Shown: positions 861 through 5,679, numbered from the stretch's first letter. The stretch: DNA of 21,659 nucleotides from a virus (IMGVR_UViG_2541047437_000015), one strand, 5' to 3'. Notes: generated from the sequence alone by a model not told the origin. Translations and numbers: made by a program.

Positions 861-1598
861 TCATTCACTCTCTTTCAAACCAGTTTTAACTGTTTGTGGT
901 TTTGGGTAAGGCTGGACTTTGAATAGCTTTGTGTTGAGGCGTTTTCTGGCCCTCTTGTTCAGAAACCGGATGTAACGAAACTGTCGGAACTTATGAACAC
1001 TGGCTCTGTCAATATTAGCCCTCAGATGTTCACCTCGTTGTCCGCCTCGTTTAATGGCATTCCTGCAAATCTCGTGATACCACTCGCCATCAAGTTCATA
1101 GAATATTGATTCATGGCTGCCTACATAATCAAAATTGCTTGCCTGATACACGACACCAAGACAGCCACAACGCTCATCTGCAAACGACTGAACCCACTGT
1201 ACCTGCGGATAAAGCTGCCTGATTAGCTTGAGCGCGTAACTGATTGCCCTTGATTCGGAGTTTCTCGGCATACAGTCATGCAGCCATAGCCGGTTAAGCT
1301 CCATATATTCTCGGTTCTGCGTACCCGTTACGACGCGTGCACCACTGTTTGGGTTAAGGGCGTAACCCCATTGCATTACGCCAACAAGTTCCCGTTCTGA
1401 AAATATGCCCAGATGAAGGTAGGAGTTATTTACGAAACGGTGGCTGTAATGTTTATTGACGATGACCAGTCTGGCCAGCCAGCAACTTATTGTCTCAACC
1501 CGCAACTCACGGGAGCCATAACCAACGATATTGTCGTTATAGCGAATAAGTTCAGGCGTGCTGATGATTCGGGATGTGACTTGCTTTCTGTTCCCCAC
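861..1598 (-). CDS. mom: DNA modification protein Mom-like (adenine modification, anti-restriction)
   Basis: 245-aa ORF with GTG start at 1598 and AAGGAAA 9 nt upstream. It sits immediately downstream of and overlapping com and is the last gene before the prophage end, exactly as mom does in Mu. Function is assigned by synteny, not by a motif I can point to. Confidence 0.75.
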
Positions 1599-1752
1599 GA
1601 CAGGATTTCCTTGTGTATGTGGGGTGCTCTGTGGCGCTCGGAGATGTGATTTGATTGAGGGTTTTACAGCGCGGACATTTTACTTCCAGATAACTGAAAC
1701 TGGCCCGTGCCAGTAGCTTATTGCAGTGTCGGCACCGTATGTTTCGATACAT
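1552..1752 (-). CDS. com: Com-like zinc-finger translational activator of mom
   Basis: 66-aa ORF from ATG 1752 (GGAGG 11 nt upstream). [30 protein letters not shown] is a C-x2-C...C-x2-C finger closely resembling Mu Com. The track's 81-aa version starts at an upstream TTG and is probably over-extended. The 3' end overlaps the mom start by 46 nt. Confidence 0.8.
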
Positions 1753-1945
1753 GACCGCATAACCTCCTGCTTTGTTGTTGATGCCTTTCTCATGCAATCG
1801 ATCGACAAAAACGATCGATTCGATTTGTTTAATTGATACAACAAATAGATTGAAAAGTCATCAACAATGATTCAGGGAGGTGATTATTTACTTAAAGAAA
1901 ACGAAGAGTTAGGTGGTGAAAACGATCATAAAATGATCATTTTAT
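1753..1945 (-). promoter_or_regulatory. com-mom upstream regulatory region with four GATC (Dam) sites: 1800, 1813, and the palindrome GATCATAAAATGATC at 1924-1938
   Basis: GATC positions read directly from the sequence. In Mu the mom promoter is controlled by Dam methylation of clustered GATC sites (OxyR binding) and activated by C. No promoter hexamers are assigned with confidence. Confidence 0.5.
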
Positions 1946-2025
1946 TGACTTTTTATACAGTGAAGGTAGGATCACGCGTATATGTAGTATGTTTCAAATC
2001 AACAGGATACTACATAAAAGTGAAA

Positions 2026-2051
2026 CCCAGCATAGCTGGAACTATGCTGGG
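2026..2051. other. Perfect 10-bp stem-loop (CCCAGCATAG-ctggaa-CTATGCTGGG) in an AT-rich intergenic region
   Basis: Inverted repeat read directly; no U-tract follows on either strand, so it is not a canonical intrinsic terminator. Confidence 0.5.
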
Positions 2052-2163
2052 TCAATCTGTAAAAACTTGCATCAATGCTTTACTTCGAGCTCGTGGCGTA
2101 TCCTATGATATTCCCCGGTCTCCTGTAAAGCAGAGATGCATAAAAAGGAGATCTTTATCATGG

Positions 2164-2331
2164 ATGAAAGAGCCTGTTTGCCCTGCCTGTAAGACTCCCT
2201 TACAGCTCATCTATCGCCGTTCTCGATCTCAAAATGGCAAGACATACAAACCCAAAAATGCTTCCTGTTTCAGGATGCTGATATGTCCTGCCTGTTCTCC
2301 CAGGAGGGAAAATACACAAAACGTGCATTAA
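2164..2331 (+). CDS. Candidate small zinc-ribbon protein (55 aa, CPAC...x24...CPAC)
   Basis: C-terminal part of track ORF 1867..2331. ATG at 2164 preceded by AAGGAG at 2145-2150 (13-nt spacing, rather long). Two CPAC motifs 24 residues apart. It is on the opposite strand to every other gene here, so it may be spurious. Confidence 0.3.
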   Translation: MKEPVCPACKTPLQLIYRRSRSQNGKTYKPKNASCFRMLICPACSPRRENTQNVH

Positions 2332-2340
2332 CAAACTCAC

Positions 2341-2360
2341 CCGGCAGGGAAACCTGCCGG
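2341..2360. terminator. GC-rich stem-loop CCGGCAGG-gaaa-CCTGCCGG between convergent ORFs
   Basis: Perfect 8-bp stem with a GAAA tetraloop, located between the minus-strand 81-aa ORF stop (2370) and the plus-strand candidate ORF stop (2331). U-tracts are weak on both strands. Confidence 0.4.
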
Positions 2361-2369
2361 TCGGTATTG

Positions 2370-2615
2370 TTACATCATAGTACCGTCAGTTCCGGGCTGA
2401 ACCGGCTCTGGTTGCTCTACGGGTTGAGGATCATTTTCCGTGCTGTTTTCAGCCGGAGAACGGCCAACCATTCGGGCCAGCACTTCATCAACATATGCGT
2501 CGATTTGTGCCTCAAAATCCTTGCGAACCTGCGCCTTCAGCACGCGGTTCACTTCTTCAGAATAAAGTGCCTGTTTGACAAGCTCTTCAGTAACCGTGCC
2601 TTTAATCTCTGGCAT
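2370..2615 (-). CDS. Hypothetical acidic protein (81 aa), cargo gene
   Basis: ORF with strong RBS AAGGAG 8 nt upstream of ATG 2615. Composition looks protein-like (E/K/V/A-rich N-terminal half, Pro/Glu/Gln-rich acidic tail). No family recognised. Confidence 0.6.
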   Translation of the reverse strand: MPEIKGTVTEELVKQALYSEEVNRVLKAQVRKDFEAQIDAYVDEVLARMVGRSPAENSTENDPQPVEQPEPVQPGTDGTMM

Positions 2616-2650
2616 GAATATTCTCCTTTTGCAGGTATATTGCCCCGTTA

Positions 2651-2833
2651 TCAGAGCGGGGTCGGGTCGTTTGGGGATGACGGTGCCTGTGCTGTTTTAC
2701 TGAGTTTTTCAGCTGCCGCATCATCAATTTTACGGCGAATATAATTTCTGATGACCTTATAACCACCGCTCACCAGATATAACGCACTGACCACAGCGCA
2801 GAAATAAAGCAGCATTGTATGAACGAATGTCAT
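2651..2833 (-). CDS. Hypothetical small membrane protein (60 aa; one predicted N-terminal transmembrane helix followed by a basic segment)
   Basis: ORF with TAAGG-type RBS about 7 nt upstream of ATG 2833. Residues 4-22 (VHTMLLYFCAVVSALYLVS) are hydrophobic, followed by a KVIRNYIRRK basic stretch. Confidence 0.55.
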   Translation of the reverse strand: MTFVHTMLLYFCAVVSALYLVSGGYKVIRNYIRRKIDDAAAEKLSKTAQAPSSPNDPTPL

Positions 2834-2946
2834 ATAACCTTACCTTTGATATTGACTACATAATTCGTTATCGGGTAAAAACATCGAAGCGACTGATAAC
2901 CACTCCTTCGGGAGTATTTTTATTTTCCTTTATGGGTTAGGTAGCT

Positions 2947-2987
2947 CCCGCCAGCCATATCATGACCGGCGGGATTTTTTTATTCTG
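2947..2987 (+). terminator. Plus-strand-oriented intrinsic-terminator-like hairpin (CCCGCC...GGCGGG followed by ATTTTTTTATT), directly abutting the esterase stop codon
   Basis: 6-bp GC stem with a ~15-nt loop and a T7 run on the plus strand. On the minus strand, where the neighbouring genes lie, the A-run precedes the hairpin, so it would not act as a canonical terminator for them. Confidence 0.4.
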
Positions 2988-5019
2988 TTACCGCTTTTTT
3001 CACTTCCACCACAATGCTGTCAATCAGCACCGGGTAAGTTGCATTTTTTGTGATATCCGTTACGCGGAGTTTGTCCACCGGGAAAGTTCCTACTGGTGAC
3101 TGCGTCAGGGTAAACGCGGCACCATCCTGACCATCAATAACCGGAATAACCTGAAGGCTGTTATTTCCTGCAAAACGGAAGGCCAGCGTATGCCATTCAT
3201 TATCAAATGCACCAAAGGTTCCCAGTTTCTGGTTATTTGTTGCCACTTTTGCATTGTGGTACATCACATTCAGGTCTTTTGCGTCTGTCTGGATGTAGAA
3301 CGATGCCAGCAGATTATTCCCTGCATCCCCTGTCAGGGTGACACCCTGCGGCAGAGAGGAAACCGGCCAGTAAAGCCCCATGACATACTGGTTTGCCACC
3401 AGGTCGCCAGGTACTTTAAAACGACAACTGATTAAACCACCATTTTTCAGCAGTTCAGCACCAGTACCGGCATCATGATCCAGATACCAAGATGATTTAC
3501 CTGTTTCCTTGGTCAGTTTCATTGCCTTACCACCTGTGCCTCCTGCATCACTGATAATTTCAGCTTTACCGCCAGCCGGCTCCCAGCCCTGGGCTTTCAG
3601 ATTTCCTTCTGACTCACTGACACGATAAGACAGCAGTGTTGTGGTTACTGCTTCAGTTTCTGAAGGTGACGGCACTGGTGCTTCAGTTTCAGAAGATGGA
3701 ACATCGGCTTTTACTGTGGTTCGCCCCGCATGAGTCAGAACTGCCGTGGCCAGACGGTCGGAAATAATCCCACGACGTGCCCATGAACTGAAATGGCTGG
3801 CCCGGTCCGCAGATGTCCAGGTGGCGGCACTGTTACGCCACGTTGAGCCGTAATAACCAATGGATTCAATATCCGGGTCTTCTGCCGGATTGTTGGTGGG
3901 TACATTCGCGTCATTTTCATCTGTCATTAATGGAACGAAATGAATGTTTTTATCTGTTTTGTTTTTGTAGCCGCCATAGATTGCCTGGTATGCCGGTTCA
4001 TTTTTCTGTTTCCAGAAATACGTGGTATCGCCACAAATCCACGGAACGCCAGCAGCACTGCCACCGGTACACTGTTCCGCCTGTTCAGCCAGGTCTGCGC
4101 GGAATTTTTCCACCATCGCCAGAAACAGCGCGGAATGCTCCGTCGGCTTCGCATCAATATCAAACTCGCCCTGCATCCACACCACAGCAAGCAGGCGGTT
4201 TTTCGGGTTCTTCGCCAGTGCCGCTTTTGTCCGGCTGATTAAGTCCTTATACAGCGGCTTATCCACACCCCAGCGGGCTGAGTCCTCTGAAGCACCCGTG
4301 CTGTCACTGTACGTGCCGTCAGCACCCGCCGTGAATGCAGAACCACCACGGCAGCAGGGAACCAGCAGAATCCCCGCATCTGCCGGAATAAACGGCAGCA
4401 GTTTTTTGGCAATGTGAAGCCCCTGACCCACGGTGCCATATTGCCCTTTAGCCACATCCGCTTTCGGGTGATTTTTTCCACTCATATCCTGCACATCATG
4501 CAGACAGTGGTCGGCCAGAATGATGTCGTTATACTGACAGGCTTTACCTCCCGGCGTGACTGTACTGCGACGGGCTAACTGCATAATACGCGGTTCGGGG
4601 CGGTCATATGTCTCCGGCAGTGGCAGACCTTCACCGTAAGCCATACCGTTTGACTGACCAGCAAGAACCACCACGTAATACCAGGAAGGGGAGCTGGAAG
4701 CAGTTTCATTTCCTGACGGACGGGTATGTGTTTCAGCATTATCCCAGTCTGACGGTTCAGCAGTACCGGCAACATCAGCACTTAACGGAATGACCGCACC
4801 AATACCCGCTCCGGTAATTTCCACACTCGGATCACCGGATACTGGCCTTACCCACAGGCAATCCCGTGTATTAAAACTGATGAGACAGTCAGCAAATGTC
4901 ATTCCTCCTTTTGTTTCGGCCGGAGGAAAGGGAGCCTCAAGAAATGCCGCTGTACCACCGGAAACTTTAACAGTAAAGTTTCCGGGCATTGATGATAGTT
5001 GAACCCATTTGGACGTCAT
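2980..5019 (-). CDS. SGNH/SASA-family esterase, putatively a sialate O-acetylesterase-like (NanS-p-like) protein, with a C-terminal lectin/carbohydrate-binding-like domain
   Basis: 679-aa ORF. VVVLAGQSNGMAYGE contains the GQSN nucleophile motif typical of SASA/SGNH esterases. A Ser/Thr/Glu/Pro linker (SETEAPVPSPSETEA) precedes a ~200-aa beta-rich C-terminal domain. This architecture resembles the prophage-borne NanS-p esterases of E. coli. Confidence 0.6.
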   Translation of the reverse strand: MTSKWVQLSSMPGNFTVKVSGGTAAFLEAPFPPAETKGGMTFADCLISFNTRDCLWVRPVSGDPSVEITGAGIGAVIPLSADVAGTAEPSDWDNAETHTRPSGNETASSSPSWYYVVVLAGQSNGMAYGEGLPLPETYDRPEPRIMQLARRSTVTPGGKACQYNDIILADHCLHDVQDMSGKNHPKADVAKGQYGTVGQGLHIAKKLLPFIPADAGILLVPCCRGGSAFTAGADGTYSDSTGASEDSARWGVDKPLYKDLISRTKAALAKNPKNRLLAVVWMQGEFDIDAKPTEHSALFLAMVEKFRADLAEQAEQCTGGSAAGVPWICGDTTYFWKQKNEPAYQAIYGGYKNKTDKNIHFVPLMTDENDANVPTNNPAEDPDIESIGYYGSTWRNSAATWTSADRASHFSSWARRGIISDRLATAVLTHAGRTTVKADVPSSETEAPVPSPSETEAVTTTLLSYRVSESEGNLKAQGWEPAGGKAEIISDAGGTGGKAMKLTKETGKSSWYLDHDAGTGAELLKNGGLISCRFKVPGDLVANQYVMGLYWPVSSLPQGVTLTGDAGNNLLASFYIQTDAKDLNVMYHNAKVATNNQKLGTFGAFDNEWHTLAFRFAGNNSLQVIPVIDGQDGAAFTLTQSPVGTFPVDKLRVTDITKNATYPVLIDSIVVEVKKAVTE

Positions 5020-5118
5020 AATAATCAGCCTGTTCCTGAATAAACTGAATTATCATATCCACAGACCGATAAACGCCATTTTGCGTTAATTCAGTAAAGG
5101 CCCAACAAAGAGAGCGTC

Positions 5119-5679
5119 TTATTTTTCCGAAACGCTCGCAGGATAATAACGATAAAGGGTTGAAAGGCCGATATCAAAAATAAGTGCCACCTGTCTTCGA
5201 CTGACACCCCCGGCCAGTAAACGCCCGACCTGCTCGTATTGTTCCTGCGTGAGACGACGGGGTCTGCCGCCGGTTCGTCCCCTTTCACGGGCAGCTGCAA
5301 GACCAGCCCGTGTCCGTTCGACAATTAATTCACGCTCCATTTCTGCCAGCGCACCCATTATGTGAAAAAAGAAGCGCCCCATGGGGGTTGACGTATCAAT
5401 GTTGTCAGTAAGACTACGAAAATTTATCCCCTGTTGCTGTAATTCATCTGTCAGCGCAACAAGGTGGCGCATACTGCGCCCCAGCCTGTCCAGTTTCCAG
5501 ACCATCAGTGTGTCACCGGGTTTTAGTTTCTTCAGTGCCCGCTTCAGTCCCGGCCGCTGTGTCGTTTTACCACTCATTTTATCTTCAAAAATCTGCTCAC
5601 ATCCTGCACATTCCAGCGCATTTCTTTGTAAACCTGTGTTCTGGTCATTTGTTGATACGCGTATATAGCCAATCAGCAT
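5119..5679 (-). CDS. gin: Gin/Pin/Cin/Hin-family serine DNA invertase
   Basis: 186-aa ORF. MLIGYIRVSTNDQN...VWKLDRLGRSM...FRSLTDNIDTSTPMGRFFFHIMGALAEMERELIVERT is near-identical in pattern to Mu Gin, with the catalytic Ser in the RVST motif. RBS AAGGAAGG 8 nt upstream. Lies adjacent to a gix-like site. Confidence 0.9.
   Translation of the reverse strand: MLIGYIRVSTNDQNTGLQRNALECAGCEQIFEDKMSGKTTQRPGLKRALKKLKPGDTLMVWKLDRLGRSMRHLVALTDELQQQGINFRSLTDNIDTSTPMGRFFFHIMGALAEMERELIVERTRAGLAAARERGRTGGRPRRLTQEQYEQVGRLLAGGVSRRQVALIFDIGLSTLYRYYPASVSEK

Follow-up and report, generated by a model that had tools for sequence, protein, structure and literature searches.

What is encoded on the plus strand between com and the accessory genes of a Mu-like prophage whose neighbouring genes all run on the minus strand? 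We addressed this question in IMGVR_UViG_2541047437_000015, a viral stretch of 21,659 nt (the window, from the first letter of which all positions are counted), which is an Sp18-type Mu-like prophage of Escherichia coli; the region considered here is 100% identical to Sp18 in E. coli O157:H7 Sakai. A sequence-only reading had singled out a hairpin, a small open reading frame (ORF) with two CPAC motifs and a downstream terminator, and had attributed them to an antisense RNA, to a small zinc-ribbon regulator or to coincidence. Our analysis indicates that these features probably belong to two independent plus-strand units. Unit 1 (about 1945-2372) would comprise a promoter, a leader of about 180 nt with three stem-loops (SL1 to SL3), an AAGGAG ribosome-binding site, a gene of 55/56 codons and a hairpin at 2341-2360 shared with the convergent gene. 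Unit 2 (about 2852-2981) would produce a short RNA from the spacer between DUF1378 and the nanS-p-like esterase gene, ended by a hairpin and seven Us, and corresponds to the small RNA (sRNA) candidate EcOnc37. The elements of Unit 1 are as follows.

1867-2163, plus strand: 5' part of an annotated 154-aa ORF, non-coding (frameshift flags, allele comparison)
1924-1938, no strand assigned: GATC-containing palindrome GATCATAAAATGATC, just 5' of the -35 hexamer
1945-1972, plus strand: sigma-70-like promoter TTGACT-16-TAGGAT (hexamer scan and comparison)
1981-2016, plus strand: SL1, AT-rich, at the predicted 5' end of the transcript (covariation analysis)
2025-2052, plus strand: SL2, the middle stem-loop of the leader (folding and covariation)
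2068-2140, plus strand: SL3, long and most conserved, its 3' end forming the junction with the exchangeable gene
2145-2150, plus strand: Shine-Dalgarno sequence AAGGAG
2164-2331, plus strand: 55-aa putative zinc-ribbon gene (conservation, selection)
2329-2372, no strand assigned: palindrome containing both convergent stop codons, with a core hairpin at 2341-2360

A small putative zinc-ribbon gene hidden in a misannotated frame

The ORF at 2164-2331 codes for MKEPVCPACKTPLQLIYRRSRSQNGKTYKPKNASCFRMLICPACSPRRENTQNVH, a product of 55 aa with two CPAC motifs, and comparison of its alleles and homologues indicates that it is a conserved protein-coding gene under purifying selection. Its size alone is not significant, as the first 6 kb contain or touch 62 ORFs of 30 aa or more; we accept it as real because it is conserved, both among E. 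coli alleles and in a Salmonella homologue. Coincidence was rejected. The frame is intact in eight of nine distinct alleles, and all four cysteines are kept in seven of them. Between the E. coli and Salmonella types, the proportion of synonymous differences is saturated (pS = 0.77) and that of nonsynonymous differences is 0.32 (pN), while the ratio of nonsynonymous to synonymous substitution rates (dN/dS) within types is 0.24-0.28 in three comparisons, a fourth (L024 versus L035) giving 0.51. A HMMER search of 1.8 billion representative proteins returned only the E. coli family and one distant relative, P0005, a 53-aa protein of Salmonella enterica with 43% identity (E = 2e-6). P0005 is encoded in Salmonella Mu-like prophages at the same position and in the same orientation, divergent from com, which is followed there by mom or by a cytosine methyltransferase gene; no esterase module lies near it in the Salmonella prophages examined. 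Close copies from E. coli or Salmonella were all that word-indexed protein searches recovered, and a protein-pattern scan of one genome per species gave no match.

The RefSeq and Sakai records annotate 1867-2331 as a single hypothetical protein of 154 aa (ECs_4996, WP_115801860), the start of which is positioned upstream of the promoter. This feature is flagged as frameshifted in all four annotated copies that we fetched (95-98% identical), and tblastn breaks it into three pieces in phage records. Other alleles read ATGGAT-AAAGAG and encode a 56-aa protein beginning MDKEPVCPAC, from the ATG equivalent to position 2160, 9 nt after the Shine-Dalgarno sequence. The window allele carries one extra G (ATGGATGAAAGAG), at 2163 or 2166, which is absent from most relatives and recurs on differing leader backgrounds in L020, L028 and L031. 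The insertion shifts ATG 2160 out of the frame, leaves ATG 2164 as the in-frame start and fuses the gene to the open stretch upstream. Since the long frame exists in the +G allele only and the small ORF in both, the annotated 154-aa ORF is, by allele comparison, an artefact of the +1 G allele. The AAGGAG motif lies at 2145-2150 rather than 2144-2149; it stands 13 nt from ATG 2164 and 9 nt from the out-of-frame ATG 2160, in a segment that the E. coli and Salmonella types share with 93% identity.

One could still regard the ORF as a chance or decaying frame within a locus where the RNA elements alone matter, as the +G allele weakens the start context, the family is tiny and two alleles are damaged, one by a frameshift in an A-run (L016) and the other by a C7Y substitution (L019). 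We consider this highly improbable, because synonymous sites are saturated, yet the amino acids, the four cysteines and a GKTY(K/R)P motif are kept, and because the frame is intact with a conserved Shine-Dalgarno sequence at the same position in two lineages. The AlphaFold (AF2) model, which shows four short strands and a disordered tail, is also reasonably confident (mean predicted local distance difference test score, pLDDT, 79.8) despite an input alignment of four sequences.

In an alignment of five distinct intact sequences C7, C10, C42 and C45 are invariant and C36 is not conserved; the invariant residues include both CPxC knuckles and the GKTY(K/R)P motif. Two CxxC knuckles are thus kept across homologues, as in a four-cysteine zinc ribbon. 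The protein is basic and hydrophilic, with an isoelectric point (pI) of 9.8, a net charge of +7.5 and a grand average of hydropathicity (GRAVY) of -0.88. Against the curated zinc-ribbon families of Pfam, the best match was Trm112p at 17.2 bits, below the cut-off of 22, and P0005 reached 21.2 bits with Zn_ribbon_TFIIB, again below a cut-off of 22. Pfam, PADLOC and PHROGs together yielded only sub-threshold generic zinc-ribbon matches, and PADLOC matched neither the zinc-ribbon proteins nor the alternative cargo genes of L003 and L005 described below. As no family, fold or defence system was matched, any function ascribed to the protein is a guess. Paralogy with Com was rejected: there is no PF10122 match, and a single BLASTP comparison with the Com protein of the window aligned only a 13-residue CPxCKT stretch (E = 0.015).

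A candidate promoter and a structured leader precede the gene

Plus-strand transcription starting near 1950-1980, as the sequence-only reading had anticipated with a start around 1950, is well supported by comparison between related prophages. Taken by itself, the hexamer match is no more than chance would give (2 found versus 3.2 expected). The -35 hexamer TTGACT is invariant, and the -10 hexamer reads TAGGAT or, in diverged relatives, TAAGAT (Salmonella type) or TACGAT (E. coli M18). In L035, a non-homologous near-consensus promoter, TTGACG-16-TATAAT, occupies an equal distance from the conserved leader start ATATGTAGTA, which places the predicted transcription start at about 1979-1981. Besides the palindrome at 1924-1938, a second GATC at 1970-1973 overlaps the -10 hexamer; it is retained in most variants and lost in L015, L017, L019 and L035. 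The position of the GATC sites, beside the -35 and over the -10, suggests Dam sensitivity, and a role of Dam methylation at the promoter is at most a lead, the sites being absent from several variants.

The DNA from com to 2136-2140 is common to all relatives, including the diverged prophage of E. coli M18 (72% identity). From the start site to the start codon, the leader of about 180 nt has a minimum free energy of -65.4 kcal/mol (z = -5.25). Covariation was examined in eight related sequences, in which 93.6% of the leader cells are paired (97% in SL1 alone) and ten pairs have changed on both sides, compared to 4.9 +/- 1.4 in shuffled alignments (1/500) and 1-5 in slid controls. The consensus fold is more stable on the plus strand (-41.3 kcal/mol) than on the minus strand (-35.2 kcal/mol), and G.U cells outnumber A.C cells 36 to 13 over the whole leader, 8 to 1 in SL1 and 19 to 5 in SL3, on the plus strand. 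Compensatory base-pair changes on the transcribed strand, as seen in these eight sequences, are those of a structured cis-acting leader. SL3 is 77-100% identical between variants, with compensatory changes in M18 and in L013/L016. It contains UCUCCU (2119-2124), which might, as a conceivable alternative fold, pair with the Shine-Dalgarno sequence. SL2, the most variable segment (44-69% identity), nonetheless keeps its stem. It is the hairpin that had been described as a perfect 10-bp stem-loop at 2026-2051; its perfect arms in fact span 11 bp (2025-2035 and 2042-2052) around a 6-nt loop, and as plus-strand RNA it folds at -20.6 kcal/mol (z = -4.85), a stability that none of 200 shuffled sequences attained.

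Tandem SL2 units (ACTACATAAAGGG-hairpin-GCATCAATGC...) occur in the leaders of L004 (3680-3900), L024 and L035; those of L024 come after another small plus-strand ORF rather than after a promoter. Rfam returned nothing with E < 0.1 across 1500-3300 on either strand at a permissive threshold. A leader-pattern scan of one genome per species gave 94 matches, which we take to have arisen by chance, since the SL3 5'-arm motif was found upstream in 0 of the 80 loci returned. A 15/19 match between the leader and the com-mom mRNA was likewise dismissed as chance; it is not kept in other leader variants.

The hairpin at 2025-2052 could also serve mainly as a minus-strand terminator or insulator shielding the toxic com-mom pair from transcription of nanS-p/DUF1378/DUF826, the leader fold being secondary. 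Read on the minus strand, it is followed by UUUCACUUUUAU and is the top terminator-like match (-22.1 kcal/mol, z = -6.1), SL2 shows no strand preference (G.U versus A.C, 6 versus 6), and mom expression, known to be toxic, is guarded in several ways (PMC3378877). Such a function, which would be compatible with two plus-strand units, nevertheless appears unlikely as the principal one, given that the U-tract is poor in most other variants (CGCCCUUUAUGU, CUCCCUUUAUGU), that SL1 and SL3 favour the plus strand and that L024 carries the same unit after a plus-strand ORF.

The promoter scan also listed a minus-strand site within SL3 (TTTACA-18-TAGGAT, 2129 to 2100), the hexamers of which are kept in L013 and L024. 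Together with the hairpin, it could yield an antisense RNA of about 70 nt against the leader, in a hok/sok-like or other cis-antisense control. We give this arrangement hardly any credence: the -10 is lost in M18 (TCGGAT), the hexamers lie within a stem conserved for pairing, and most variants have a weak terminator U-tract. On the loss of that -10 and on the protein itself, which is hydrophilic and basic and not a membrane toxin, a type I toxin-antitoxin system of the hok/sok kind was rejected.

Different genes follow the same leader

The exchange point of the cargo lies immediately 3' of SL3, and each of the alternative plus-strand genes has its own ribosome-binding site. Of the 235 matching E. 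coli records, about 200 have the zinc-ribbon version, and three other gene contents stand behind the same leader in related prophages. Because the leader is retained with unrelated cargo, autoregulation by the zinc-ribbon protein cannot be its function. L003 (3860-4265) and L004 (3916-4309) contain a 68-aa plus-strand ORF and a 66-aa minus-strand ORF, convergent and with overlapping 3' ends, neither of which matched a family. In the prophage of E. coli M18 (L005, 3852-4379), the cargo gene encodes 175 aa, with a zinc ribbon at the N terminus, a single predicted membrane helix and a further domain at the C terminus; the protein belongs to PHROG 13160, a group of unassigned function.

The GC-rich 8-bp stem CCGGCAGG-GAAA-CCTGCCGG (2341-2360) separates the stop codon of the small ORF from that of DUF826. 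A hairpin adjoining the DUF826 stop is conserved in all cargo variants, and its tail is better in L003 and L005, where the plus strand continues with UUUGUAUUGUU and the minus strand is U-rich. To judge from its structure and conservation, the palindrome at 2329-2372 probably terminates transcription in both directions, that of the small gene on the plus strand and that of DUF826 on the minus strand. A canonical terminator, CTCCAGCC-TTAT-TGGCTGGAG-TTTTT, begins 8 nt past the stop codon in the Salmonella type. The terminators that follow the small gene, canonical in Salmonella and a hairpin in the window, suggest that it is monocistronic in both lineages. Past this terminator, the Salmonella prophage L013 (5362-6274) has three more plus-strand genes, of 100, 81 and 122 aa, the last of which matches PHROG 5954 and, weakly, PD-T4-7 in PADLOC (E = 0.0025).

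Unit 2 probably corresponds to the Hfq-bound RNA candidate EcOnc37

The features of Unit 2 are the following.

2852-2881, plus strand: promoter-like element TTGACT-18-TAAAAA in the DUF1378/nanS-p spacer (candidate only)
2888-2981, plus strand: candidate short sRNA
2902-2915, plus strand: UUCG-tetraloop hairpin
2916-2934, plus strand: U-rich tract
2946-2981, plus strand: terminator, with stem arms at 2946-2958 and 2962-2974 followed by T7 at 2975-2981

The plus-oriented hairpin and T7 run that had been noticed downstream of the small ORF are present, the T7 run overlapping the stop codon of the esterase gene on the opposite strand. The claim that this terminator is the only one in the region did not hold: besides the GC hairpin at 2341-2360, a total of nine terminator-like sites were counted in 1500-3200, compared to 1.5 +/- 1.2 expected. 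Inside the candidate EcOnc37 unit, the UUCG hairpin followed by AUUUUUAUUUU (2902-2925) constitutes a second plus-strand terminator-like site.

The sequence of the spacer between DUF1378 and the esterase gene varies, while four plus-oriented elements are constant: the promoter-like element, the small hairpin, the U-rich tract and the GC hairpin with T7. All four are found in the window, in L003 and L005 and in the Shiga toxin (Stx) phages 2851, 933W, P13368, Ss-VASD and PA8, and the promoter-like element is kept as TTGAC(A/T)-17/18-TAAAAA in L003, L005, 2851, 933W, P13368 and Ss-VASD. The Stx phages with this spacer have no Mu backbone and no Unit 1, and the stems of their hairpins differ yet still pair.

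Table S2 of Tree et al. 2014 (PMC4104026) lists EcOnc37 for Sp18 at 5077340-5077410 on the minus strand; a Rho-independent terminator is predicted for it, and it forms a peak in five data sets of Hfq cross-linking and analysis of cDNA (CRAC). Gene coordinates in NC_002695.1 (PMC5597208 supplement) and in NC_002695.2 differ by an offset of +127. Assuming that Tree et al. used NC_002695.1 coordinates, this offset places the peak at 2920-2990 of the window on the plus strand, over the terminator and the preceding U-rich tract. The EcOnc37 peak is experimental evidence of a plus-strand RNA at 2920-2990 in a lysogen. The sequence has both an intrinsic terminator with a U-tail and an internal U-rich tract, as do Hfq-dependent sRNAs, and binding to Hfq in vivo comes from the literature (PMC4104026 Table S2) through the coordinate conversion. 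The simplest reading of EcOnc37 is a short sRNA of some 60-95 nt. It has no Northern entry in that table and is named in no other paper in the literature searched, and Rfam has no family at its site or at the homologous spacers of Stx phages. Known RNAs were considered and rejected as its identity: HnrS (EcOnc12) maps downstream of Rz in Sp9, and AsxR and AgvB both lie 3' of a PR' moron.

The single plus-strand transcript that had been proposed, from about 1950 to 2985, is sustained in its start and not in its extent. A single RNA of about 1 kb (about 1980-2981), cis-antisense to DUF826 and DUF1378 and with the ORF incidental or a second function, would account for the Hfq peak, which shows plus-strand RNA at 2920-2990. 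It would also fit with the weak U-tract that the window allele has behind the hairpin at 2341-2360, since no strong plus-strand terminator follows before that at 2946-2981. We find such an RNA very unlikely. Stx phages that have neither the leader nor the ORF keep the 2946-2981 terminator and the promoter-like element; that terminator coincides with the EcOnc37 peak, which was reported separately; the ORF, itself under purifying selection, has its own hairpin, kept in all cargo variants; and the Salmonella homologue is followed by a canonical terminator with no DUF826 or DUF1378 downstream.

We therefore favour two units, against which several observations nonetheless weigh. In the window allele, the tract that follows the 2341-2360 hairpin on the plus strand is a poor one (UCGGUAUUGUU), so that some read-through toward 2981 is possible. 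The -10 of the candidate EcOnc37 promoter lacks the conserved final T, and the mapping of EcOnc37 depends on the coordinate version stated above. With a start 13 nt from the Shine-Dalgarno sequence and a 10-codon out-of-frame ORF at 2160, weak translation is possible, and the small gene may, on this sequence, be weakly translated in the +G lineage of the window. The ribosome profiling tables for Sakai (PMC5597208 supplement) contain com (ECs4997) and not ECs4996, which is also unmentioned in the literature searched. The damaged alleles, the indifference of SL2 to strand and a covariation sample of eight sequences count in the same direction, as does the zinc-ribbon protein itself, which matched no family, solved structure, predicted viral structure or defence model.

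Prophage context

About 230 further E. coli genomes match the region of the window, with lower or equal identity. The genes surrounding the two units are listed below.

861-1598, minus strand: mom
1552-1752 (as annotated), minus strand: com (ECs4997)
2370-2615, minus strand: DUF826
2651-2833, minus strand: DUF1378
2980-5019, minus strand: 679-aa SASA/DUF6645 esterase
5119-5679, minus strand: Gin-type invertase

The prophage ends at about position 733, and bases 1-732 are flanking DNA; as these differ from the flanks in strains E2855 and Sakai, the prophage of the window occupies another insertion site. In phage Mu, the gap between gin and com is 95 bp only, so that about 1830-5100 is accessory. 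The insert includes, at 2370-5019, a NanS-p-like sialate O-acetylesterase (SASA and DUF6645) with DUF1378 and DUF826, in the order of the stx-to-holin module of Stx phages, where the counterpart esterase is annotated as NanS or 9-O-acetyl-N-acetylneuraminic acid deacetylase.

Other observations concern com and its surroundings. A DNA cytosine methyltransferase gene replaces mom after com in L006 (247-1453) and L013 (3398-4610), and the com-type translational control region is kept. A palindrome at 1796-1820, AATCGATCG-N7-CGATCGATT, with two GATC sites, is shared with the mom control region of Mu and lies much nearer the com start than its Mu counterpart. In ordinary Sakai cultures, the ribosome coverage of com is high relative to RNA (81.7 versus 727, one condition; PMC5597208 supplement).

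Proposed expression of the two units

We propose that Unit 1 is a self-contained accessory cassette of the "moron" type diverging from the com-mom control region, in which the promoter and leader would form a conserved expression platform and the gene downstream would be swapped between prophages. As an ordinary sigma-70 promoter oriented away from the C-dependent late genes, its promoter should be active in lysogens or just after entry, and the gene would be expressed then without the phage late activator. SL1, 2-3 nt from the 5' end, probably protects the mRNA, and SL3, the end of which adjoins the ribosome-binding region, probably governs translation or processing. Binding of nucleic acid or of a partner protein is the probable role of the basic zinc ribbon (pI 9.8). 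Unit 2 presumably arrived with the nanS-p/DUF1378/DUF826 module from lambdoid phages.

A bolder version would make the promoter and leader a dedicated cis-regulatory RNA platform of enterobacterial Mu-like prophages, read by a common factor (for example Com, an RNase or temperature) and controlling interchangeable genes, with the zinc-ribbon protein founding a new family of regulators or anti-defence proteins; we hold this to be distinctly unlikely.

The two-unit arrangement corrects the gene model in about 200 complete E. coli genomes searched, replacing a 154-aa "hypothetical" protein or "frameshifted pseudogene" by a 55/56-aa zinc-ribbon gene with a structured leader. The accessory end of Mu-like prophages in Shiga-toxin-producing E. 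coli and in Salmonella, which is poorly known, also gains a conserved small protein and a leader RNA that no catalogue lists, and EcOnc37, an orphan Hfq-bound candidate, becomes a conserved part of the nanS-p module of Stx phages.

Comparison with known systems

Phages of Pseudomonas related to Mu have anti-CRISPR and accessory loci in which a fixed locus and a conserved promoter serve diverse small genes. The likeness to Unit 1 is architectural only, as Unit 1 has no aca-type helix-turn-helix gene and no match to defence models.

The neighbouring Com protein of Mu (PF10122), a small translational activator of mom, is similar in size to the zinc-ribbon protein and is also a four-cysteine zinc ribbon with a CPxC knuckle. 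The spacing differs, C-x2-C-x16-C-x2-C in the Com of the window and C-x2-C-x31-C-x2-C in the small protein, and there is no significant similarity between them. In Mu, momP2 is a divergent promoter overlapping Pmom (PMC3378877), and, like the Unit 1 promoter, it is directed leftward, along the plus strand, from the far side of the com-mom control region. Unlike momP2, the Unit 1 promoter lies about 190 bp from the com start, has no visible overlap with Pmom and would drive a gene, for which the momP2 region of Mu has no room, with 95 bp between gin and com. By analogy, momP2 could be a distant counterpart of the Unit 1 promoter.

EcOnc37 (Tree et al. 2014, PMC4104026) agrees with Unit 2 in prophage (Sp18), strand and, after conversion, the 70 nt around the hairpin and T7. 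The published entry is a table row only, without ends or target, to which the conservation with nanS-p and the promoter-like element are added here. AsxR/AgvB and HnrS of enterohaemorrhagic E. coli are also short Hfq-associated RNAs antisense to prophage late genes, at other locations.

Morons, as described in PMC4104026 after Juhala et al. 2000, are autonomous inserts of promoter, gene and terminator, such as bor and lom of lambda or tin and old of P2. Unit 1 resembles them in having a single small gene with a sigma-70-like promoter and a terminator hairpin of its own, and in its place between conserved phage modules, oriented against the late genes and with a content that varies among related prophages. 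The promoter (scan, conservation and the L035 replacement) and the terminator, with its weak U-tract in the window allele, are recognised from sequence; as for presence and exchange, the unit is absent from Mu and three other contents follow its leader elsewhere. It differs from morons in keeping its promoter and long structured leader and swapping the gene only, and its expression from the prophage is predicted. Neither unit overturns current ideas: Unit 2 is already listed as EcOnc37, and Unit 1 is a misannotated accessory cassette of a familiar kind, with a conserved structured leader as its twist.

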